This document shows, one piece after another, positions 8,445 to 47,142 of a stretch of DNA of 64,000 bases. Under the pieces are notes generated by a model. The model did not search any database. It saw nothing but the letters and a program-made list of their open reading frames with translations, and was not told where the DNA came from. This DNA comes from an uncultured Pseudomonadota bacterium (GTDB taxonomy: Bacteria; Babelota; Babeliae; Babelales; RVW-14). Each line of letters opens with the position of its first letter. Position 1 is the first letter of the stretch. The stretch spans positions 83,393 to 147,392 of the forward strand of contig CAZMQG010000001.1 of assembly GCA_964568625.1 (NCBI GenBank), read 5' to 3'. The position numbers and the translations under genes were made by a program.

Positions 8445-9701
8445 TTAAACAATTACTGGAGTCAGAATCCAACCCTCAAATCTCGGAGCCGTTTTTAAAA
8501 TGCCATAAACAGCTCTATCTACTATTCCATACTCCGTTGCTGCAGTAAAAGTAAAAATTGGAATTTTTTGATGAGCCACCACTATACGGGCCTCTGCCCA
8601 CTCCTCCATACTAACAACTCCATCCCACTGAAGCGGCGCACCAAGTTGCGTTTGATCTTTAAATAACGATAAACCGCCAGCATCATGTTGATGACCTCGA
8701 AAAAGTAGCTGAATTCCACTTTCCTTAAACCAATTCACCATATCACATGTAGCTAAATAGTCTATCCAACTAGCTCTTTTTAAATTCATTTCGATAGTAG
8801 ATCCATTTCCATGAAAATCCCCCCATACAAACCCATTAACCGCATCAGTACGACCATAACCAATCTTGTTAAAATCAATAGCTCCAACCATCTCCGAGCA
8901 ACCCAAAAAATATCGCATATCACAACATGGTTCAATTGCTCCATGACAACATTGTATCCATTTATCTGCGGATTTTAAGTATAAAACAAGTACAAGTTGC
9001 TTATATAACTCATCAAATTTTTTCAAATAAATGGGCCCGTTTTCTACCCCATACTTTGCAACTAACTCAGAATAAAAGCCTATAGGAGTATCGCTATTTT
9101 GATTCAAATTTTCATGATTGCCTCTTTGAATAAATATTTTATCCCAATTTGCTAATTTCAACCGCAATAGTGTATACCAAACCTCAACTCCATACGTACC
9201 TCGATCAACGTAATCCCCAGTAAAAACAATATGTAAATTATCGTTTATAATTTTAAAATTATCATCAACATGATTTTTGATTATTTTCAATAACGAATGG
9301 GCACTACCATGAATATCCCCAATAAAAACTATTTCACTTATACTAGGTAGAATTTTTTTCTGGCAGTAGGAAAGACTTATATCGTCGACAACATTAAATT
9401 GTGCCTGAAATCGACTCATATATTCATCTATTAATTTAGTCATACAAGAAAATGGAATAAACATATGTTGCATGCGCTCAAAAACAAGCAACTGATCTTT
9501 TACCGCTGAATCATCCATGCGTTTTTGCTCCGGCAAATTATCCATTTGCTGAATTAACCAACTTAGCGGTTTTTTATCAGCAGAAGAATCCCCTAATAAA
9601 ACAGGATATGTGAAGGCAGCATTTATTTGTGAAAAGCACAAAACAATTAATGGAAAAAACAATACCCTAAATGGGCAAAACCACTTAGCAATCATTGACA
9701 A
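8445..9701 (-). CDS. Secreted calcineurin-like (PPP-type) metallophosphoesterase
   Basis: GDIHG, GDYVDRG, RGNHE, CHG, RGHQH motifs; N-terminal hydrophobic signal segment. Confidence 0.85.
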   Translation of the reverse strand: MSMIAKWFCPFRVLFFPLIVLCFSQINAAFTYPVLLGDSSADKKPLSWLIQQMDNLPEQKRMDDSAVKDQLLVFERMQHMFIPFSCMTKLIDEYMSRFQAQFNVVDDISLSYCQKKILPSISEIVFIGDIHGSAHSLLKIIKNHVDDNFKIINDNLHIVFTGDYVDRGTYGVEVWYTLLRLKLANWDKIFIQRGNHENLNQNSDTPIGFYSELVAKYGVENGPIYLKKFDELYKQLVLVLYLKSADKWIQCCHGAIEPCCDMRYFLGCSEMVGAIDFNKIGYGRTDAVNGFVWGDFHGNGSTIEMNLKRASWIDYLATCDMVNWFKESGIQLLFRGHQHDAGGLSLFKDQTQLGAPLQWDGVVSMEEWAEARIVVAHQKIPIFTFTAATEYGIVDRAVYGILKTAPRFEGWILTPVIV

Positions 9702-9799
9702 TCCCCTTATTCAAGCATCAAAATAATAGATTAATATCCTAGCTAAAGATTGCCAGCACATAATGCAATTTGTCAATAAACCATGCATTGCTATATTAA

Positions 9800-10990
9800 T
9801 TACTCGCTTTTTAAATGCAATCGCATATGCCCTTTTTGAATACCTTCGCTAACAAGAGCTTTAAGCGCTGCAAAATTTTGAGCCAACCCTACACTTGCAA
9901 TAATTTGTGCAAGATCTAAAACAGATTTTATATCAAGAATTTTTAAACAAAGCTTAGCAAAAGGATTATTCTTTGTGGCACCACCAACAACACCAACAGC
10001 CAGTGGAATTTCTATTACTCCAACAAGATTGCCATTACAATCTTTTGAATATTCAGTTAAAGACTTATAAGAATTGTGCATGGCAGCGTATCCATGAATA
10101 CCTGCCTCAACAGCACGAAAATCGTTTCCTGTTGCCAAGCAAACAGCATCTATTCCATTCATTATACCTTTGTTATGGGTGACAGCACGGAATATATCAA
10201 TTTTTGCGATCTCATTTGCTTGAATAATTTTATCTATTAAATCAGAGCCAAGATCTTCTTTTTCCCAGACTGCTTGGGCTTTTACAATTCTATTAACAGC
10301 AAGATTTGATAATATCTTTAACAAAACATTTCCGCCTGTTATTTTTTCAAGAAATGGGGCCACTGCTTCACACATGGTATTAACAGCATTTGCACCCATC
10401 GCATCTTTTACATCAACAAGAAGATGTATCACCAAAACTTTTTCTGATAAATCAAGAGACTTAAACTCACCTAATACTCCTGACGATACAGGCTCAATTT
10501 CGCGAAAATTTAAATCAAATGCTCCTCCACCTAATTTTATAAGCACATTATCTTTAGAATTCGCAATTTCAAGAATTTTAGTTTTATGCTTTTCTATTTT
10601 TATTTTTGCACCAAAAATATCTTTTATCCCTAAAATATGCATTTGCCCAATCATTACAGATCGGCTTGAACTTGCAGTAAACCCCCCAAAGGACCTAGCC
10701 AATTTCGCCGCATTACTTGCAGCCGCAATTACACTGGCCTCTTCTGTAGCCATCGGGATAAGATAATCCTTGCCATTAATTATAAAATTTGTGGCAATCC
10801 CAAGTGGCACAGGAAAAACAGAAACCACGTTTTCGATCATCTGCTCAGCAAAACCAAAATCCATACTATCTTTTAAATTTAATAACAAAATATCCTGAGG
10901 TAAAAGATCTGCAAACTCTTTTAATAAATTAAGCCGCTCATCGCGGCTTAATTTGTAAAACTCTTTTATTCTACTATTCTTTTTATTCAT
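9800..10990 (-). CDS. mvaA: Class II HMG-CoA reductase
   Basis: ENVVS, PMATEEASVIAA, DAMGANAVN, HNKGIMNG, GIQKGHMRLH (catalytic His); the protein ends four residues after this motif. Confidence 0.9.
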   Translation of the reverse strand: MNKKNSRIKEFYKLSRDERLNLLKEFADLLPQDILLLNLKDSMDFGFAEQMIENVVSVFPVPLGIATNFIINGKDYLIPMATEEASVIAAASNAAKLARSFGGFTASSSRSVMIGQMHILGIKDIFGAKIKIEKHKTKILEIANSKDNVLIKLGGGAFDLNFREIEPVSSGVLGEFKSLDLSEKVLVIHLLVDVKDAMGANAVNTMCEAVAPFLEKITGGNVLLKILSNLAVNRIVKAQAVWEKEDLGSDLIDKIIQANEIAKIDIFRAVTHNKGIMNGIDAVCLATGNDFRAVEAGIHGYAAMHNSYKSLTEYSKDCNGNLVGVIEIPLAVGVVGGATKNNPFAKLCLKILDIKSVLDLAQIIASVGLAQNFAALKALVSEGIQKGHMRLHLKSE

Positions 10991-11006
10991 TTGATTAAAA
11001 AGTGAA

Positions 11007-11408
11007 TTATTCAGCTAAAGTAATACAAAAACTTGATAAACTTTTAGCTTCTTGCGGACATTTAAAGCAGAAAGAAACCCCTGGCAGCATCTCCGTATAA
11101 AAACGCCTACTATCAATCTCTACACCAGCTATCTTTAACGCTTCAATGTAAAATCGAAAAATACCTGTTATATCACATTTATTAATATCTTTTTCAGTTA
11201 AAAATTCATGTTCTACCATTTGGGTTACAAGAAACTTTGAAAACTGAATGTAAGCACGGGTTGAATATCTTGATGAAACTGATGATTTTTGGGAATTAAT
11301 TTGCTCTAAATATAAAGAACGTGTATTAATAAAAGCATCAACCATCCCACTTGCAGACAAGCCCAGAGATGCCAATAAAATTCCAAAAAATAAAATTATT
11401 TTTTTCAT
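11007..11408 (-). CDS. Secreted hypothetical protein
   Basis: GGAG RBS, MKK start, signal peptide; no family recognised. Confidence 0.7.
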   Translation of the reverse strand: MKKIILFFGILLASLGLSASGMVDAFINTRSLYLEQINSQKSSVSSRYSTRAYIQFSKFLVTQMVEHEFLTEKDINKCDITGIFRFYIEALKIAGVEIDSRRFYTEMLPGVSFCFKCPQEAKSLSSFCITLAE

Positions 11409-23466: not shown

Positions 23467-23763
23467 TTACAAACCACGTTTTTTCCACCACTCATCCGTT
23501 TTAAATTCTTCTGGGAGTCCTGGGGTTTCAGTCTCTTTAAGCTCTGGCTCAAGATGAAGTTCATCAAATAAAATTCGAAAATACTCGTCACGTACGCTTG
23601 TCGGCAATTTGGTTCCACACCAAGGACAATAACAAATTCCCTGTAATCCACCTGAGCGTCTTTTTAGAAGAATATTATATTCTCTTAGATGCGGATAATA
23701 AATAATGGGAACTATTGGATCATTTAAAAAATCTACCATCAATTTGCAACAATGAATATCCAT
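23467..23763 (-). CDS. Putative immunity protein (resembles the DUF6980-type family)
   Basis: AAGGA RBS overlaps the toxin stop; HCC..M, YPHLREYNI, YCPWCGTKLPTSVRD, EWWKKRGL. Family name is from memory and needs HMM confirmation. Confidence 0.6.
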   Translation of the reverse strand: MDIHCCKLMVDFLNDPIVPIIYYPHLREYNILLKRRSGGLQGICYCPWCGTKLPTSVRDEYFRILFDELHLEPELKETETPGLPEEFKTDEWWKKRGL

Positions 23764-23773
23764 ATTTAATTCC

Positions 23774-24904
23774 TTACATTCTACGATTATAAACAGCTGC
23801 CTTATAAAGTTGTAATGTTTTGGGATCAATAGATCCAAGATGAGTTTTTCCCTTGTTATAAACTTCTACGTCATTATGAAGATTATCCCATTGAAGATAG
23901 TGCGCCTTTCCATCAAGCAACCCCATAGCTCTATCTTTAAGTCTATATATACCATCTTTCCAATATTCATACTGATCTTTTAATTGTCTAAAAAACTCTA
24001 CCTTTGTAACAGTATTAATAATTCGATCGTTTGGTCCTTTTTTTGGATCTTTTGGCCCACCTCGACCAGAACGGCAATTCGGATCAACTCGTTCAAGATA
24101 AATTCCACCTTTTTTTTTATCGCCAAAAAAATAATTATACCCTACTATTCCCACCCCTGTAAAAACACCAAGCGCAAATCCAACCGGACCAAGTGAAACA
24201 TAACCTCCGCCAACCGATAAAGACGCTTCCGCAAATGATATAGATGCCGAAGTTGATCCAAATATCCAAGATGCGCCAACGGCAAGTGCCGGCAATCCAT
24301 TATGAGTTAATAATAAGCGACGCTCCTGATTTGCATACTCCGATTTTTCTGAAATTAAAAACGTATGTGGTTCTTCTACTTCTACTCCATATGCATAAAT
24401 TTTTACAGTCTGTATCTTTATAGGCCTCTTTTTTTTATCAAACTTTATCGTACAACAATCTGCCCTACGTATTTTTGTAATTGGAATACAAGACATATCA
24501 ACATCAATAAGCATATCTCCTGCATTCAGGTATTGGGCTTGAACAAAATCCGCCATAACTGAAATATTTTTTTCTTTATCTTCCCCAGCCTTAAGTACAA
24601 AAAATAAATGTTGGGGAGATGAATCAATCCAACGATACTTTTCTGTATAAATTGAAAAACCAGCCTCAAGCAAACATTTATCTATTTTCGTAATTTTTAC
24701 TTCAGTCAAGATTGTTTCAGTTTTTGTTGAATTAAAATTATAACTTAATACCTTATCCCCAATTTTTAATTTTTCTACTTTCACTAATCCAGTAGATGTT
24801 GCAACGAGTGTTCCTTCGGGAAGGCTTGATTGTACTAATTTAAACCATGAAAAAATAAACCCAAGAAATAAATATATCACATTAATTAGCTTAATCTTTT
24901 TCAT
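23774..24904 (-). CDS. Polymorphic toxin: signal peptide, Hint domain, hydrophobic linker, colicin E3-like RNase
   Basis: SLPEGTLVATSTGLVKVEKLKIGDKVLSY and VEVEEPHTFLI...LLTHN Hint blocks; C-terminal YLQWDNLHNDVEVY...HLGSIDPKT matches colicin E3 YEWDSQHGELEGY...HLGSFDPKT. Confidence 0.8.
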   Translation of the reverse strand: MKKIKLINVIYLFLGFIFSWFKLVQSSLPEGTLVATSTGLVKVEKLKIGDKVLSYNFNSTKTETILTEVKITKIDKCLLEAGFSIYTEKYRWIDSSPQHLFFVLKAGEDKEKNISVMADFVQAQYLNAGDMLIDVDMSCIPITKIRRADCCTIKFDKKKRPIKIQTVKIYAYGVEVEEPHTFLISEKSEYANQERRLLLTHNGLPALAVGASWIFGSTSASISFAEASLSVGGGYVSLGPVGFALGVFTGVGIVGYNYFFGDKKKGGIYLERVDPNCRSGRGGPKDPKKGPNDRIINTVTKVEFFRQLKDQYEYWKDGIYRLKDRAMGLLDGKAHYLQWDNLHNDVEVYNKGKTHLGSIDPKTLQLYKAAVYNRRM

Positions 24905-25147: not shown

Positions 25148-26086
25148 TCAGGCACTTTTAATTTGACCAAAACCCTGTAAAAAGTAATTTGCCAAACCAA
25201 TTAAAAGTTTGTCCAATATGTAGCGTTCGTCCTGAGGACTGCTATTGGCTTGTTTAAAAGATAAAGCTATAAATGCAAGCATTTGCAAGTATGGTTCGAT
25301 ATCTGCAATAGATTTTATAATATTTTTTTTAATACCTAGTTCTTGCCAAATTTTGGCTGCATCACCCCCAAATATGTTGGCATTCTGCATTGGAACTAAC
25401 ATATTAAATAACTGATTAAGAACAATCTGATCAAAAGCAACAGCTTGAGATAAAGCATTTCCTAAATTTTGTGAAAATTGGATATTTTCTTGCTCACACA
25501 AATTATAAATAAAAAAAATAAAAGTTCGTAAAAAGTAATAACCCAAAATCCCTGATGCCCCGCCAGCCAAATTTATTAAAATTTTTTGTGAAGATGTGTA
25601 TTTCACATTTTTATTTGACTCTGACGAATTAAAACCGGACATGGGATCAAATCCATCAAGACTAAGATCTTTTGAATCAATTATAGGGAAAGTTCTTCCG
25701 GAAGAATTTTTACCCAAATGTATCTTAAAATCGCACCCCGTTAACATTTTCTTTGCAACTCCATGCCCAAGCTCATGAAAAAACGTAGCTGCAAAATTCA
25801 TGCAGTACGATGATGCAAAGTTAATAGCCAAATTTTTAGGTACAAATTGAGATCTTAAAGATTGAGGCATATGATCAATTTGTGCTTGATAAGACAACAA
25901 AAACATTATACCTAACAAACAAGCCGCTGCTGTAAAGTTATCTTTAACATCTACAGCCTCTCGACAAATTTCTGTTTTAATTTTATGCGACAAAGATGGA
26001 CATTTATTTGAAGCACAATGCACATTCAAGCTTAAGAACTTCAAAACAATTAAACTTAGTAATATTGAAGCAAACCGCTTAACCAT
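25148..26086 (-). CDS. M50-family (site-2 protease-like) membrane metallopeptidase
   Basis: FFHELGHG (HExxH), NLAGGASG, NMLVP...GGDA third-ligand motif, several TMs; start overlaps the pcrA stop. Confidence 0.7.
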   Translation of the reverse strand: MVKRFASILLSLIVLKFLSLNVHCASNKCPSLSHKIKTEICREAVDVKDNFTAAACLLGIMFLLSYQAQIDHMPQSLRSQFVPKNLAINFASSYCMNFAATFFHELGHGVAKKMLTGCDFKIHLGKNSSGRTFPIIDSKDLSLDGFDPMSGFNSSESNKNVKYTSSQKILINLAGGASGILGYYFLRTFIFFIYNLCEQENIQFSQNLGNALSQAVAFDQIVLNQLFNMLVPMQNANIFGGDAAKIWQELGIKKNIIKSIADIEPYLQMLAFIALSFKQANSSPQDERYILDKLLIGLANYFLQGFGQIKSA

Positions 26087-41172: not shown

Positions 41173-44100
41173 ATGAATAAATTTCTGAGAATAATACTGT
41201 TATTTTGCATTGCATTCACGTTGGAATCAAATGCAATGCAGCCAAAATTAATCACACTCAAAACTAATCTCGGCACCTTAACAACAAAGCTGCAAATACT
41301 AGGACAAAAACTCGAAGCACTAAAAAACAAGCTCTCAGATAAAATTCAACCTGAATATCAAAAAAACCTAGATATTTACGCCCTGTACGGAGATAATCCA
41401 GGTATAATTAATGATTCTACAACAGGGCAACCAAGAGAATTAAAACTAGATAAGGACAAAAATTTAAGGCTTGTCGGGCTAGAAAATACTTCTTACACGG
41501 GCTATGGCTATAAAACAGCAAACCTCAGAGAACTGCAAAATATTATAAAAGAGATGAAAATCGCAAAGCCAACAACCTCAGAAGAACAACAATATATAAC
41601 TCAAACTAAAAAACTTAATTTCTTGAAATTACTTAAAAAACAAACTCTAAACATAGGTTATGCCGTTCCAGATTTTATAGGAATAAGCTCTGAAAACATA
41701 AAAAAATATCTCTTAAGTAAAAGCCTCAATATATCAAAACAGTGGAAGGATCTAACATCAACAATCCCTGCATCTGACCAAAAGGCATCTTTACAATCCA
41801 AAAATTTGCCTACCGCTTTTGTGACTGGAATTAATGGAATAGAAAAAGCAGTTAAGAATAAATTTCTTGGTGCAGCAGCTATTTCAATCGTAGATTTAGA
41901 TAAAGAGTTTAATACATCAGGCATAAAAACATTTTTAAGCACAGCGAAAGCTAAAAACCTCAAATTAATGGTTAGAAGTACAGGAAAAGAAGACACTGAC
42001 CAGTTGGCAAATGCAGGAGGTAATGAAACTATCGGCAATGTAGATCCAATCGACAAAAATATTTTAATGGCAATGGGACAAGGCCCAGAGGATCCCATTA
42101 ATAAAGGGGAGTTTAAACTAGGGGTCGTCTCATCATACTTTGGACTAAAATCATTTACACAAAGAATAAAAGCCGGCGATCTATCACTTTATGAAGAACC
42201 TCCAACCCCTGCTCTTATTCAAGTTATGATTGGTGAAACTCCTGATGAAATTACATCATGCGGCGTCATGTTTACTGAAGAGCCAGAAGGCGGAATTTCA
42301 CAAAAAAAAGAGATAAATTCCGACACCGGTCAGATTAAAACTACAGGCATTACACGTATTGAATGTTCTTATGGACATAACGAGGGTGTGGTTAACAGCA
42401 TGGTCCCAGTTGATGTTTACTACATCGATAATAAAAAGGAAATAAACTCCATAATTAGAATAAAAGATAAAAGAATAATTCCTACCCCAAAAGGATTTCA
42501 AATAACTACAAATGATAAACGCTTAGATGGAAGTTTAGCGGCAGATAAAGACTTACCTAATCAACCCGCGCTATCTAAAGAAGAAGTTAAGGCCCTCAAA
42601 ACTTTATCAAATTATCTTGAATTTCATTATAAAAAACCGATGGATGTTGAATTTGTTTTGAAAAAGGCTAATCCAACAGATAAAAAGCGCACCATTTATC
42701 TTGTTCAAGCTCGTCCAATTGTCCACAATGATAAAAAAATTACACCCAGCTATATTTTAAAACCGGAGGATTTTACTGAAAAAGTTACAGGAGAAGTTAT
42801 TGGCATCGCCGGAGGAGCGCTTAGACTCGTAAAAAGTAGAAACGAATGTGTTATCGCAGAAACACTTAAAGAAGCTCTTGAAATTTATCAAAAACTCGAC
42901 TCTTCAGATAATATTAATTGTATATTCGTGAAAAACATGGCTCCGGCAACTTCACATGAAGCAACGCAATTCAGAACGGAACAAAAAGCTGTAATGTGCG
43001 TACCTGAAGTTCAAATAATTGAAAAGTGGCTTCAAGAAAATAAATTTATTCTCATAGATATACAACAGGAACTTGTCACTGCTTGGGATGGAGATCCTAA
43101 TCTTGAAGAAGCACTAAAAAATGATACCCGACTGCACGATGGTTGGATTAACTACCCAATTCCAATGAAATTAACACTCGATGATCTTAAAGACAAAAAA
43201 TATAATAAAAAATTTTCTGCACTCAGCATAAGTGAAATAAACGCAAACTTTAAAGAATTCTTAAACTCTGATTATTTTAAAAATGTTGCAACCATGGCAC
43301 AAGATCAGGCAAAAAAAGATTTCATTAAGAAAAAAGGAGCTAAGCGAACAGTAAATTTAGCAATGTTTCGAATATGCTTCAATTCAATAAAAAAAGATGT
43401 TGAAGAATCAGCAAAATTAAATCTATGTAAGCTTTGCCTAGGCCTAAGTTCCCTTATAAATCAAATGCTAAAACAACTGAAGGATGATGATTTTACTTAT
43501 CAATCCAAACTTATATTGAATCATCTTTTAATACATGCTAAACAAGTAAGTTCTGTTTTGAAAATTCAACCATCTGACGCTAACTATTTCCAACGCTTAT
43601 ATGAAGTAAGATTTTTAGAATCCATTCTATTTCAAACTTCATCCAATGATATTTTTAATAATTATTCATTAGAAAATTTAACAACAAATATTTATGCAAA
43701 AGAGAAATCGATCGAAAAAGAGTTAAGAAAAACCGTACCAATGACGGTTGTAGGTGAAAAATTCAACCAACTAGTTCAATATGGAAAAGCTGCAGAATTT
43801 ATCCTAACCGATGATTTAAAGGCAAAATGGAATAAACTTCTAACTCAACTTCCCAATACTGATCTTAAAACTGATCAGAAAAAATTTAATGTAATGTTTG
43901 ATAATTTAGCAAAAAACAATCTTTTAACCGTTTGGTTTTTATTAAGCGTTGAACCGGTAATAAAAAATAAAAATATTACTTCAAAATTTGAAGCCCATAA
44001 TATAATTGATCAATTATATTCGGATTACAATACAAATAAGCCATTTATCGACGAATTAAAAAAACAAAGAGATAAATTTAATGAGTTAGAAATATCACTG

Positions 44101-47100
44101 TGGAGTAGCGCACATAAATTTGGCAAACAAAAAGAAAATTTAGAAAAAATTGGGGCATACTTTAAAAACCAAGCATTTTTCGACTCATACAACGCCTCAG
44201 GCAATCTGGGCAAAGTATTTGCAACTCAGGTAATGGAAGAATTTATTACTCTTTTTGACACATCAATAAAACAACTTGAAAGCAGCCTAAAAGAATATCC
44301 TGATGAACAAACTCTTATTACTAATATCAAAACTTTAATTACACTGTTTTTAAGTTTTTTATCTGAGTGGATTAATAAGTTTCCGGGAGCAATAAATATC
44401 GATGGGGCTAATGCTTGGGGAGGCCAAACATATACTCAACAAAAATACGACACCGCACAAGCAACTTTGTCCGGTATTTCACCAAATTCCACTAACTATA
44501 ATGACCAAATCAAAATATCTCCAACATTTGATGTAGGAGCATCTGCAATCGGAGGATCTAAAGAGACGGTTGCCAATCTTACAACATTAGAGGATATATT
44601 TACATTTACCCATCAAAGTTTATTGAACATATTAGGTTTTTTAAATAAAAGCATAGATATATTTGGAGCTTGCCCCCAAATAATTTCAAGACTAAATACA
44701 GAACTAACATCTGAAATAAAAACATTAACATCAACTGCTTATGTTGCGCCAAAAGACATAACATTAGCAGGATTATCGATTGAGGGTAAAAATTTAAAAC
44801 TAAAATATAACTATCCTCTCCGTGGACACAGTATGACTATCAATATTAACTTTGAAATAAAAACGAAAATAACAACTATTGCCTGCGAAATTGCCGGTAC
44901 TGGAGGTGGCGCAGGCGGAAATGAATTTGCAAGATTTTATAAAATAGGGGATTACATTGATGTTACAAGCAAAGCGTTAAATTTAAAATCAAATTATAGA
45001 TTCGAAATTCAGGATAAAAAAATAATATGGGAGTGGAAAATTGATTCTAAAACACCTGATATAAATATTTCAAAAATCAAAAATTTAATATTTGAAGCAG
45101 TTTGCATTTCATATGCCGTAAATAACTATCATAATGCAATGGCCTATGAAGCCAAGATATATCAAGAAACCTTTAATTTTATAGATAAAAACGCACTGAC
45201 AACACAGATCATAATTTTTTCAGAACAAAAGGAAAGATTGCACAGTGTTTTCGTAACAGCGCTTGAAAATCTTCCCCAAAATGCAACGTCCTGTAATAAC
45301 TGGGCAAAGACAATTGAAATTTTAGGAAAACTTATTAATGAAAATAATCCATATAGAATAAACACCGAATGTTTCTTTTTTAAAAAATACCACGATCCTT
45401 ACATGGGAGGGTTCCATCATCAATTAAATTATTTGAATATAGAAAATACATTATATCATGAATTAACCTCAAAAAATTATTTATCCATATCCAACACAGA
45501 GATTCAAAACATTGATTTAAAGAGAAATTACTTCAAATTCCGCGAGGCTAAAAAGATATTTAACTATCTGTGCCAAGTTTCACAATATTTTGACGAAAAT
45601 TGTTGGAATAAATTTTTAGATTTAATTAAATCTAACACTGAGCTAGTACTTGGCTTAGAAGACTTAACCCTTGATGATATGGAGGGAGATGGCCCCGCAG
45701 CGGCTAATTTAGAAAATACGGGCACTCAAGGCAGAACTCTAAAACTGCACAATTCCATATCAAAATTATTTAATAACGGATTTACAAGCAAGGTTGCAGG
45801 AGTTAAAGATAAGGCAAAAGCAACAGCAGAAACTTTAATATCAATGGGAATAACTGGTGGGCATCCAGAATGGACAACCGTAAAAGATCTAATTTTAAAT
45901 CAATATACACCCAAATTTGGAATATTTTCTTCTGCAGCGGTTCAGGCCACAATAATACAGTCAATTACAAAGACCCCAGAAGTATTTATTGCCCAAGCTA
46001 ATGCAGAAGATTCATTTAAATTAGTATATCCATCTAAAAAAGCTACATTAAAACCTTTTATAAGCTCATTAGGCGATTTTGCAATGAACCCGAATGATCA
46101 AATCTCCCAGGTAGCCTTCAAAATACTTACTTATTTAAAAGCCCAAGGAGAAGATATTTCAGCCTCATTTGCAAATATTTCGCAAAAAATAAAAACTGAC
46201 CAGGTCACGCTTTTACAACAACAAAAAATTACAAATTTAATAACTCTATTATATGATTTAGTTCCCAACCAAATGCAATTTTTGACAGAAGCAGAGGTAA
46301 TCGCAAAAAAGGCACTGAAATCATCAACTTTTACTACAAAAAATGAAGGAGTAAAATTAGCAAAATTCGTTTTATCCAAAAATCCAGCCGCCGCCTTTAA
46401 TCCTGCAGATTTAATCGATTTACAAGAAATAAAAAATTATATTGATCAATATACCTTCAATGATACGCCTGATAAAAAAGGGGAAAATGCTATCCAAAGC
46501 CTTAAATCAACCGGAACAGCAAATAAGGCAACTGTCCAAGATCCAATGCTTATAGATACAATAAAAAATCAAATCCAAAAGGGCTACTATTTCGGGAATA
46601 CCCAAAATCCAAATGTTTTAGATCTGTATGAATTGATTTCACAAAAAATCTATACTGACCATGAGTTAATCGAAACAGCAAAAACTGACTTAATGGGAAT
46701 ATTGAATAATACAAGCGTAGCCGATGGCGTTGTGCCAACTTATCCTGACCAACGTAATAAAATTGTAAATTTTGCAGAATATTTAATAAGAAATAACAAT
46801 GTAGATAAAAGTGACGTATGGGCCATTTTACAAGCTAGCGGAACAGACACAAAACGAAAATCATTAATTTGCATCCAGATTTTATTTAAAACTCATTACG
46901 ACACAAAAGAATTTTTCGATTTAAGCATTCCTTTAATATTTACCCAAATTAATGCCAATGACGGTGCAAGCAATTACAGTAAAATTGCAAATGATTGTTA
47001 TACGACACTTTACCAATCTATTATTCAAAATAAATATTCACACCAGGATAAGGCTCTATTAAAAACAACTCTTCAATCTTTGGCATTAACACCCGGATCA

Positions 47101-47142
47101 TACCCACAATCACAAAAAGAAGAGATTATTGGCTTATTATAA
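41173..47142 (+). CDS. Secreted 1989-aa PEP-synthase/PPDK-like dikinase (ATP-grasp plus phospho-His swivel) with a large unknown C-terminal region
   Basis: Signal peptide; LMVRSTGKED...AGGNET..NV, IQVMIG, GVMFT, SYGHNEGVVN, PMDVEF, IYLVQARP; swivel motif APATSHEATQFR (His595). No PEP-binding TIM-barrel signature. Confidence 0.8.
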   Translation: MNKFLRIILLFCIAFTLESNAMQPKLITLKTNLGTLTTKLQILGQKLEALKNKLSDKIQPEYQKNLDIYALYGDNPGIINDSTTGQPRELKLDKDKNLRLVGLENTSYTGYGYKTANLRELQNIIKEMKIAKPTTSEEQQYITQTKKLNFLKLLKKQTLNIGYAVPDFIGISSENIKKYLLSKSLNISKQWKDLTSTIPASDQKASLQSKNLPTAFVTGINGIEKAVKNKFLGAAAISIVDLDKEFNTSGIKTFLSTAKAKNLKLMVRSTGKEDTDQLANAGGNETIGNVDPIDKNILMAMGQGPEDPINKGEFKLGVVSSYFGLKSFTQRIKAGDLSLYEEPPTPALIQVMIGETPDEITSCGVMFTEEPEGGISQKKEINSDTGQIKTTGITRIECSYGHNEGVVNSMVPVDVYYIDNKKEINSIIRIKDKRIIPTPKGFQITTNDKRLDGSLAADKDLPNQPALSKEEVKALKTLSNYLEFHYKKPMDVEFVLKKANPTDKKRTIYLVQARPIVHNDKKITPSYILKPEDFTEKVTGEVIGIAGGALRLVKSRNECVIAETLKEALEIYQKLDSSDNINCIFVKNMAPATSHEATQFRTEQKAVMCVPEVQIIEKWLQENKFILIDIQQELVTAWDGDPNLEEALKNDTRLHDGWINYPIPMKLTLDDLKDKKYNKKFSALSISEINANFKEFLNSDYFKNVATMAQDQAKKDFIKKKGAKRTVNLAMFRICFNSIKKDVEESAKLNLCKLCLGLSSLINQMLKQLKDDDFTYQSKLILNHLLIHAKQVSSVLKIQPSDANYFQRLYEVRFLESILFQTSSNDIFNNYSLENLTTNIYAKEKSIEKELRKTVPMTVVGEKFNQLVQYGKAAEFILTDDLKAKWNKLLTQLPNTDLKTDQKKFNVMFDNLAKNNLLTVWFLLSVEPVIKNKNITSKFEAHNIIDQLYSDYNTNKPFIDELKKQRDKFNELEISLWSSAHKFGKQKENLEKIGAYFKNQAFFDSYNASGNLGKVFATQVMEEFITLFDTSIKQLESSLKEYPDEQTLITNIKTLITLFLSFLSEWINKFPGAINIDGANAWGGQTYTQQKYDTAQATLSGISPNSTNYNDQIKISPTFDVGASAIGGSKETVANLTTLEDIFTFTHQSLLNILGFLNKSIDIFGACPQIISRLNTELTSEIKTLTSTAYVAPKDITLAGLSIEGKNLKLKYNYPLRGHSMTININFEIKTKITTIACEIAGTGGGAGGNEFARFYKIGDYIDVTSKALNLKSNYRFEIQDKKIIWEWKIDSKTPDINISKIKNLIFEAVCISYAVNNYHNAMAYEAKIYQETFNFIDKNALTTQIIIFSEQKERLHSVFVTALENLPQNATSCNNWAKTIEILGKLINENNPYRINTECFFFKKYHDPYMGGFHHQLNYLNIENTLYHELTSKNYLSISNTEIQNIDLKRNYFKFREAKKIFNYLCQVSQYFDENCWNKFLDLIKSNTELVLGLEDLTLDDMEGDGPAAANLENTGTQGRTLKLHNSISKLFNNGFTSKVAGVKDKAKATAETLISMGITGGHPEWTTVKDLILNQYTPKFGIFSSAAVQATIIQSITKTPEVFIAQANAEDSFKLVYPSKKATLKPFISSLGDFAMNPNDQISQVAFKILTYLKAQGEDISASFANISQKIKTDQVTLLQQQKITNLITLLYDLVPNQMQFLTEAEVIAKKALKSSTFTTKNEGVKLAKFVLSKNPAAAFNPADLIDLQEIKNYIDQYTFNDTPDKKGENAIQSLKSTGTANKATVQDPMLIDTIKNQIQKGYYFGNTQNPNVLDLYELISQKIYTDHELIETAKTDLMGILNNTSVADGVVPTYPDQRNKIVNFAEYLIRNNNVDKSDVWAILQASGTDTKRKSLICIQILFKTHYDTKEFFDLSIPLIFTQINANDGASNYSKIANDCYTTLYQSIIQNKYSHQDKALLKTTLQSLALTPGSYPQSQKEEIIGLL

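Follow-up and report, generated by a model that had tools for sequence, protein, structure and literature searches.

Here we describe a two-gene locus in a 64,000-nucleotide stretch of DNA (hereafter the window; GenBank assembly GCA_964568625.1, contig CAZMQG010000001.1, positions 83,393 to 147,392 of the forward strand) from an uncultured bacterium that GTDB places in the Babelales. We consider it likely that the locus is a polymorphic toxin-immunity cassette on a Dependentiae chromosome, in which a precursor would be exported, cut by its own Hint domain and thereby freed of a C-terminal tip resembling the 16S rRNA ribonuclease of colicin E3, with a small protein of the Pfam family DUF6980 serving as immunity. 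The Dependentiae are uncultured obligate intracellular parasites of protists. Almost nothing is known of competition among them, and the cassette together with its relatives shows a diversifying toxin-immunity arsenal; it also offers a testable function for a Pfam domain of unknown function, in that DUF6980 would be a further immunity family for E3-type ribonucleases. The parts of the cassette are listed in Table 1.

Table 1. Features of the toxin-DUF6980 locus, in window positions
Feature	Position	Strand	Detail or basis
Toxin gene	23774..24904	-	376 aa plus stop; AAGGAG 9 nt 5' of ATG
Signal-peptide-like N-terminus, aa 1-26 (MKKIK, hydrophobic core, VQS)	24827..24904	-	Hydropathy; layout common to all full-length relatives
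Hint domain, aa 27-202	24299..24826	-	Block A SLPEGTLVATSTGLVKVEKLKIGDKV; block F YAYGVEVEEPHTFLIS with H180; block G LLLTH201-N202
Predicted autocleavage junction Asn202/Gly203	24296..24301	-	Invariance in 17 relatives; mechanism from type A BIL/intein chemistry (PMC4031507)
Post-Hint Gly/Ala/Ser-rich hydrophobic module, aa 203-262	24119..24298	-	Many invariant Gly/Pro; no Pfam family
Basic Gly/Pro/Lys linker, aa 263-295 (YLER...PKDPKKGPND)	24020..24118	-	Tip-switch boundary among relatives
Colicin E3-type cytotoxic (16S rRNase) tip, aa 296-376	23777..24019	-	PF09000; 1e44_B alignment; conservation table
Catalytic motif W339-D340-N-L-H343-N-D-V-E347	23864..23890	-	Alignment, conservation
Stop TAA, overlapping AAGGA ribosome-binding site and 10-nt spacer	23764..23776	-	Minus-strand sequence
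DUF6980 gene, candidate immunity	23467..23763	-	98 aa, ATG at 23763, end at 23467; PF22400 match, CC...CPWCG, EFKTDEWWKKRGL tail

The tip and its carrier

The C-terminal tip matches the Pfam Cytotoxic family PF09000 above threshold (28.3 bits against a gathering score of 22, E 2.2e-6), with aa 332-375 covering profile positions 35-78 of 80. Identity to colicin E3 itself is low (phmmer E 0.11), and alignment to colicin E3 chain 1e44_B sets D340, H343 and E347 on the catalytic residues D510, H513 and E517. Across 43 related tips these positions are well kept (D340 in 37, H343 in 37 with Lys in four, E347 in 42), as are H355 (39 of 43) and G357 (41 of 43), while R374 is retained in 24 of 26 ungapped related tips. 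The published Tox-ColE3 signature comprises an Arg, Dxx[HK], a Glu and a His (PMC3482391); with D340, H343, E347, H355 and R374 all present, the tip carries it in full, including the additional conserved His. Homology and these conserved residues together suggest that the tip cleaves 16S rRNA, which colicin E3-type enzymes cut between A1493 and G1494.

Upstream of the tip, the protein opens with what looks like a Sec signal peptide, which signal peptidase would be expected to remove: K2, K3 and K5 precede a hydrophobic core (Kyte-Doolittle 19-residue window above 1.0 at centres 10-20), which gives way to V-Q-S26 ahead of S27. The domain that follows directly is, judging by its motifs, a Hint domain of the kind found in type A bacterial intein-like (BIL) domains. 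Four Hint-clan families of Pfam match aa 30-135, each slightly under its curated cut-off; phmmer with the toxin also finds the solved bacterial intein-like domain 2lwy, and a profile built from 17 family members aligns to 2lwy at E 9.5e-7 over both block A and block F, with VYNFKVDDFHTYHV opposite VYAIEVEEPHVFLI. At its end the DNA reads CAT AAT GGA (24304-24296) for H201, N202 and G203, and in the alignment of 17 relatives E175, E177 and H180 of block F, H201 and N202 of block G and the +1 residue G203 are invariant. Asn cyclisation depends on His F:13, His G:6 and Asn G:7 (PMC4031507).

The opposite end of the Hint domain tells a different story. Its first position (aa 27) is Ser in most close relatives, Gly in three of them and Ala, Ser or Gly in distant ones, and block B, here S96-P-Q-H99, mostly has Gln at the H99 position across the family; a conserved N-terminal Cys/Ser/Thr nucleophile and a block B Thr-x-x-His are thus both absent from the family, and, as far as the alignments tell, neither the nucleophile nor the block B His is under selection. 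Without a conserved nucleophile at aa 27, cleavage is plausible at the C-terminal end only. What the domain conserves is just the half that one cut after Asn202 would require, and the N-terminal half-reaction appears to have been lost. Such a loss would make sense if signal peptidase already makes the Hint N-terminus. The residue after His-Asn is Gly in close relatives and G, F, I, M, A or L in distant ones, with Cys rare, and the HN-plus-hydrophobic junction recurs in about 50 distant representatives (selected by motif) in which the neighbouring residues drift. Type A BILs with His-Asn and without a +1 nucleophile give mainly cleavage products, over splicing (PMC4031507).

Between the predicted cut site and the tip lies a hydrophobic module, aa 203-262, containing 13 Gly, 8 Ser, 7 Ala and 7 Val, with Kyte-Doolittle peaks at 206-216 and 236-252 (maximum 1.86) followed by KKK. 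It holds more invariant positions (G203, L207, G210, S212, G232, G239, P240, G242, G246 and Y256) than the Hint domain does, and Pfam searches with the isolated module of five family members returned noise only (C19orf12, Gly-zipper_Omp at E 0.44, TraT). Speculatively, and by analogy, the module may aid membrane insertion or translocation, though it could equally be a stop-transfer anchor. In type VI secretion system (T6SS) effectors of the prePAAR/Tse6 class and in contact-dependent inhibition (CDI) toxins, too, a nuclease tip is preceded by a hydrophobic or entry module, which is thought to carry the tip across the target inner membrane. There is no sequence similarity to these, no PAAR, VgrG, chaperone or CdiB gene lies nearby, and here the module would be exposed by Hint cleavage.

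Much of this architecture had been read from the bare letters in a first-pass annotation, and that reading holds up well. Signal-like features do occupy aa 1-26, the Hint domain does end in His201-Asn202 with Gly at +1, the Gly/Ala-rich hydrophobic segment is present, and the proposed equivalence of WDNLHNDVE (aa 339-347) to the colicin E3 catalytic residues is borne out by the PF09000 match and the 1e44_B alignment. Its argument that a Hint domain of this kind should cleave rather than splice agrees with the BIL precedent and with the non-nucleophilic G203. Ser27, from which it started the domain, survives as the domain boundary but is not a conserved nucleophile.

The same carrier is found with other tips. 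A word-indexed search recovered 25 relatives, including full-length homologues at 85, 75, 52 and 41% identity. Five of them, full-length or nearly so, match the toxin over its N-terminal 290 aa as well as in the E3 tip (85-41% identity), and eleven share the N-terminal part only (35-48% identity over about 75% of the query), ending instead in Ntox37 (P0009, P0014, P0017, P0019), Ntox17 (P0011) or unnamed tips. In the alignment of 17 relatives, aa 1 to about 290 are common, with divergence to ColE3, Ntox37, Ntox17 and unnamed tips thereafter. The E3 tip in turn occurs on other carriers. Precomputed PF09000 matches are found in P0002-P0007, P0022 and P0025; of these, P0022 carries a different Hint domain, scoring above the PT-HINT threshold, and a Gly-rich hydrophobic stretch before the same E3 tip, and in P0025 the tip is preceded by 470 aa of unrelated sequence. 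When 1.84 billion representatives were searched with a profile, 1338 matched at E<=1e-3, of which 142 reached E<=1e-10 and 30 reached E<=1e-30; many of them are 290-460 aa long with a signal peptide, a Hint domain directly after it, ...HN, a Gly-rich hydrophobic stretch, a charged linker and a tip. Two metagenome proteins among them, P0176 and P0185, have near-identical N-terminal modules through the linker (...SNSPEDPEDK), differing slightly in the signal region and identical from the Hint start, and end in an E3 tip and an unrelated, G2-type tip, respectively; read from sequence, the pair is a direct trace of cassette exchange and a clean case of recent tip replacement. With a conserved, predicted trafficking region at the N-terminus and variable toxin domains at the C-terminus, the family is in make-up a polymorphic-toxin family. 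The first-pass annotation had proposed looking for relatives with the same signal-Hint N-terminus and swapped tips, and these are the proteins just described.

DUF6980 as the candidate immunity partner

The two genes are tightly joined. On the minus strand the junction reads AGA ATG TAA GGAATTAAAT ATG, with a gap of 10 nt, and the AAGGA ribosome-binding site of the second gene spans the toxin stop codon. The 98-aa product matches PF22400 (DUF6980) at 53.3 bits (gathering score 27, E 3.5e-14), has no signal peptide and is modelled with confidence by AlphaFold2 (AF2; pLDDT 91), and Foldseek searches with this model returned nothing significant in PDB (best E 2.4) or BFVD. NCBIfam gave no useful match for either protein. 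The catalogued immunities for Tox-ColE3 are Imm-Cloacin and Imm45 only (PMC3482391). DUF6980 is the sole family matched by the 98-aa protein, and among 120 DUF6980 members none matches Cloacin_immun or Imm45 even at E<=10.

A family search gathered 255 DUF6980 members. They keep a zinc-knuckle pattern, C5/C6 ... C46-P-W-C49-G (CC...CPWCG), and an invariant C-terminus, P-E-E-F-K-T-D-E-W-W-K-K-R-G-L. In 120 members from several phyla the last 15 residues (PEEFKTDEWWKKRGL; window 23467-23511, minus strand) are invariant or nearly so, against an average column identity of 32% outside the tail. A tail this invariant is not typical of immunity proteins and may point to a binding partner that is itself conserved.

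Evidence for partnership comes from what stands next to what. E3 tips are followed by DUF6980 in the window and in the loci L081 and L084, with one DUF6980 gene after P0006 and two after P0007. When the tip changes, so does the gene behind it: the Ntox17 tip of P0011 precedes a 117-aa gene without family, the unnamed tip of P0013 two paralogous genes of 181 and 169 aa, and the unnamed tip of P0016 two paralogous 79-aa genes. The downstream gene thus co-varies with the tip across these loci, as expected of the immunity genes of polymorphic toxins. No accessory or secretion gene common to the relatives' loci was found, and RHS, CDI and T6SS genes are absent from the loci examined; since no other gene is shared among these loci, the cassette appears to be autonomous.

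Approached from the other side, we collected 79 DUF6980 loci in named genomes, on contigs from the one-genome-per-species GTDB set; they belong mostly to Dependentiae/Babeliales/TM6, Rickettsiales, Holosporales, Chlamydiales, Coxiellaceae and protist-associated Verrucomicrobia. An E3-type tip ends 6-269 bp upstream on the same strand in 26 of the 79, on carriers whose reading frames run from 58 to 1993 aa (some ended by contig ends). Four unnamed tip families, none recognised by Pfam, occupy the same place in further loci (G1 in 13, G2 in eight, G3 in four, G4 in two). Another DUF6980 gene stands upstream in seven loci, a contig edge in two and no toxin-like neighbour in 17. In hhalign comparisons with the E3 profile, G1 and G4 give alignments of about 85% probability in the region of the D..H...E motif; G2 does not align to it. 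Gene linkage and tip co-variation together lead us to infer that DUF6980 neutralises the E3 tip.

Here, too, the first-pass annotation anticipated the outcome. The 98-aa gene 10 bp on with its ribosome-binding site over the stop is as the junction sequence has it, and the suspicion that the partner, unlike Im3, belongs to a different immunity family agrees with its assignment to DUF6980 and that family's linkage to E3 tips. The description of a minimal polymorphic toxin without an RHS, CDI or T6SS carrier likewise fits all loci examined.

Several further observations concern the tips and DUF6980 more widely. The characteristic motifs are LDxxHxDHxEVF...NxDG[TS] for G1, WWSKDxAGHGGSxWKVF...KHKGxxG for G2 and RTDGxYxYRFDxAHKTxKxHLExY...EIDPxTG for G3, and examples of G-family tips before DUF6980 lie at L033:5234-5983, L036:5243-5992, L038:3112-3861 and L048:319-1068. 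Fragments of E3-like tips 3' of a DUF6980 gene (L029:748-1122, L048:1656-1970) resemble orphan cassettes for tip replacement. P0025, from the Babeliales (L086:5001-7214, L087), is a 557-aa protein with a Ser/Pro-rich N-terminus, one hydrophobic stretch and no Hint domain; the 176-aa ankyrin-repeat gene after it may be an alternative immunity partner for an E3 tip. P0016 and its two partner genes are flanked by a large serine recombinase on one side and by a VapE/DUF5906 primase-like gene on the other (L082:1471-3015 and 9652-11235), a setting which suggests that at least some cassettes ride on mobile elements. On large Streptomyces linear plasmids (H2-H4), DUF6980-like open reading frames (ORFs) at 29-32% identity, in which the match stops before the invariant tail, indicate that the family reaches free-living actinobacteria in divergent form. 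A DUF6980-like gene on a Candidatus Megaera plasmid follows a TPR protein without a toxin tip and is an uninformative orphan.

Proposed mechanism, targets and competing explanations

The mechanism that we favour would run as follows. The precursor is presumably exported by Sec through its N-terminal signal peptide, whose removal would leave the Hint domain as the mature N-terminus, its nucleophile lost and its block F His and block G His-Asn kept. Given the invariant residues and the BIL precedent, the Hint domain would then make a single cut by cyclisation of Asn202, which would free a 174-aa fragment, Gly203-Met376, made up of the glycine-rich hydrophobic module, the basic linker and the E3-type ribonuclease tip. 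In a speculative step, the module most likely enters a membrane and helps the tip across. There the tip, by homology and by its D340, H343, E347, H355 and R374, would cut 16S rRNA at the decoding centre of the target cell. The translationally coupled, cytoplasmic DUF6980 protein, as its gene linkage suggests, would neutralise the tip in the producer and its kin.

A number of results count against this scheme. The AF2 model of the whole toxin, made with the 17-sequence alignment, has a mean pLDDT of 44.6 and low-confidence strands at 334-340, 343-349 and 355-359, so that neither the Hint fold nor the all-beta E3 ribonuclease fold is confirmed structurally, and the single-sequence Pfam scores of the Hint domain fall just below the cut-offs (Hint_2 28.1 bits against 28.4, PT-HINT 21.6 against 27.7, Hint 17.2 against 29.7). 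The second hydrophobic stretch, with Kyte-Doolittle values up to 1.86, together with KKK might serve as a stop-transfer anchor, so that the tip would stay in the cytoplasm, a poor fit with a simple release model. As to immunity, the E3-tipped P0025 is followed by its ankyrin-repeat gene and not by DUF6980, and the placement of DUF6980 after G1-G4 tips, along with the 17 loci without a toxin-like neighbour, means that the family is not strictly E3-specific and includes many orphans.

As targets of the proposed toxin we favour competing bacteria in the same protist host cell, because tip swapping, accompanied by matching immunity genes and by duplicated and orphan copies of them, is a signature of inter-bacterial conflict and because host-directed toxins of intracellular bacteria usually come without immunity genes (PMC3482391).

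A bolder extension of this scheme, which we regard as unlikely, is that the signal peptide, Hint domain and hydrophobic module form a self-contained delivery device that works without a secretion system, and that DUF6980 is a broad-spectrum immunity protein. The Hint cut could then expose a membrane-insertion segment of glycine-zipper type, its N-terminal Gly now free, and this segment would carry swappable tips into neighbouring bacteria within one host cell. The invariant EFKTDEWWKKRGL peptide of DUF6980 might act as a plug in the active site that is conserved among E3-superfamily tips, or it might shield their ribosomal target, in contrast to Im3, which binds a variable exosite. A compact carrier of about 290 aa might in any case serve the study of how nucleases cross membranes without colicin-style receptor and translocation domains.

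An improbable rival is an effector aimed at the host, whose tip would act on the cytosolic or mitochondrial ribosomes of the protist and whose DUF6980 partner would guard the bacterium only against toxin already folded before export. Such an effector would accommodate three facts: the target site in the decoding centre is conserved universally, the lineage is one of obligate intracellular parasites of protists, and DUF6980/E3 loci are concentrated in intracellular groups (Babeliales, Rickettsiales, Holosporales, Chlamydiales, Coxiellaceae). However, tip swapping with matched immunity, duplicated paralogues and orphan copies are hallmarks of conflict between bacteria, host-directed toxins of such bacteria usually come without an immunity gene (PMC3482391), and the cassette has neither a eukaryote-targeting signal nor a type III or IV secretion gene next to it.

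The Hint domain and the module bear on an explanation to which we give less credence still, namely a membrane-anchored, contact-dependent toxin from which nothing is released, the module being a permanent anchor in the producer and the Hint domain a degenerate, non-cleaving structural or adhesive head. The sub-threshold Pfam Hint scores, the unconserved N-terminal nucleophile and block B His, and a module long enough for one or two membrane spans before KKK would all suit such a protein. They are outweighed by the other end of the domain: H180, H201 and N202 are invariant in 17 close relatives and the HN-hydrophobic junction recurs in the distant ones, a pattern that is difficult to account for unless Asn cyclisation is selected. 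Moreover, nearly every +1 residue is a non-nucleophile (G, F, I, M or A), a feature shared with BIL domains that cleave. Finally, an ordinary intracellular toxin-antitoxin addiction module with a non-functional export signal would share the tight two-gene coupling with overlapping ribosome-binding site, and a HepT/MNT toxin-antitoxin pair does lie near the locus of one relative, but classical toxins of that kind have no signal peptide, Hint domain, hydrophobic module or modular tip replacement, and toxin-then-immunity order with a C-terminal toxin domain fits polymorphic toxins (PMC3482391), which makes this explanation very improbable.

Known relatives of the system and its chromosomal surroundings

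The cytotoxic domain of colicin E3, cloacin DF13 and pyocin S6 resembles the tip in its C-terminal position and length of about 80 aa, its W-D-x-x-H-x-x-x-E motif, a downstream His-Leu-Gly-Ser and a C-terminal Arg, and in those systems too the toxin gene precedes the immunity gene. Unlike colicin E3, the present toxin is not plasmid-borne, comes without a lysis gene and lacks the domains for receptor binding and translocation; its carrier is made up of signal peptide, Hint domain and hydrophobic module, and the immunity candidate is DUF6980, not Im3/Cloacin_immun. Closer in architecture are the Sec- or type II secretion-type HINT polymorphic toxins, which share the signal peptide, Hint autopeptidase, swapped tips and matched downstream immunity genes; the Sec + HINT + Tox-ColE3 class was catalogued in 2012 by Zhang, de Souza, Anantharaman, Iyer and Aravind, who list HINT as a Tox-ColE3 processing protease (PMC3482391). 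The catalogued forms have the Hint domain immediately ahead of the toxin domain, with long RHS or filamentous repeats usually preceding it (PMC3482391), whereas here it directly follows the signal peptide and about 95 aa of module and linker separate the cut site from the tip. Type A BILs (Amitai et al., 2003; Dassa et al., 2004; 2lwy) share the block A and F motifs, the C-terminal His-Asn and the non-nucleophilic +1 residue. Their first residue is Cys and they make a thioester at the N-terminus (PMC4031507), in contrast to the S, G or A at position 1 and the mostly Gln in place of the block B His found here, which leave only the C-terminal Asn-cyclisation half-reaction plausible.

The principle of a Sec-exported, HINT-processed ColE3 tip with immunity has thus been known since 2012, and the advance is incremental, not conceptual. 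What look new are DUF6980 as the immunity partner of E3 tips, a Hint domain that follows the signal peptide immediately and has no conserved nucleophile at its N-terminus, and a conserved post-Hint hydrophobic module between cut site and tip. In addition, the family is expanded in the Dependentiae, a phylum absent from those tabulated for Tox-ColE3 in 2012 (PMC3482391). Our literature searches found no paper mentioning DUF6980 and nothing relevant on polymorphic toxins or colicins in Dependentiae.

The cassette is embedded among housekeeping genes. A UvrD/PcrA helicase gene and a gene for a putatively secreted 312-aa HExxH protein lie 5' of the toxin gene on the same strand, and the other flank holds a 232-aa protein of unknown function, a mannose-1-phosphate guanylyltransferase, a PMT-type glycosyltransferase and an asparagine synthase. 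The helicase has named homologues at 48-54% identity in 'Candidatus Dependentiae/Babeliales', and the toxin family has its named homologues there too, which places the window in that phylum. The toxin-DUF6980 pair matches the window in G+C content (34.4% against 34.5%), neither gene has a second copy or paralogue elsewhere in the window, and no type V, VI or VII secretion system or RHS genes lie near the cassette. A scan for promoter and terminator consensus sequences gave two promoter-like sites, where 8.3 were expected, and no terminators. The same two genes were independently called on contigs of two further sequencing runs, in which the toxin gene is identical.

Two other genes of the window deserve mention in their own right. 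The gene for the 312-aa protein (25148-26086, minus strand) has an 8-bp overlap with the UvrD stop, and 243 bp separate it from the toxin gene downstream; it is not kept beside the toxin's relatives, and its product has a signal-peptide-like start, an FHELGHGV (HExxH) motif and a weak, sub-threshold similarity to M50/M50B peptidases. Farther along, a 1989-aa ORF (41173-47142, plus strand), about 1450 aa of which are without annotation, has as its sole Pfam match the pyruvate phosphate dikinase ATP-binding domain PPDK_N, at aa 161-522.

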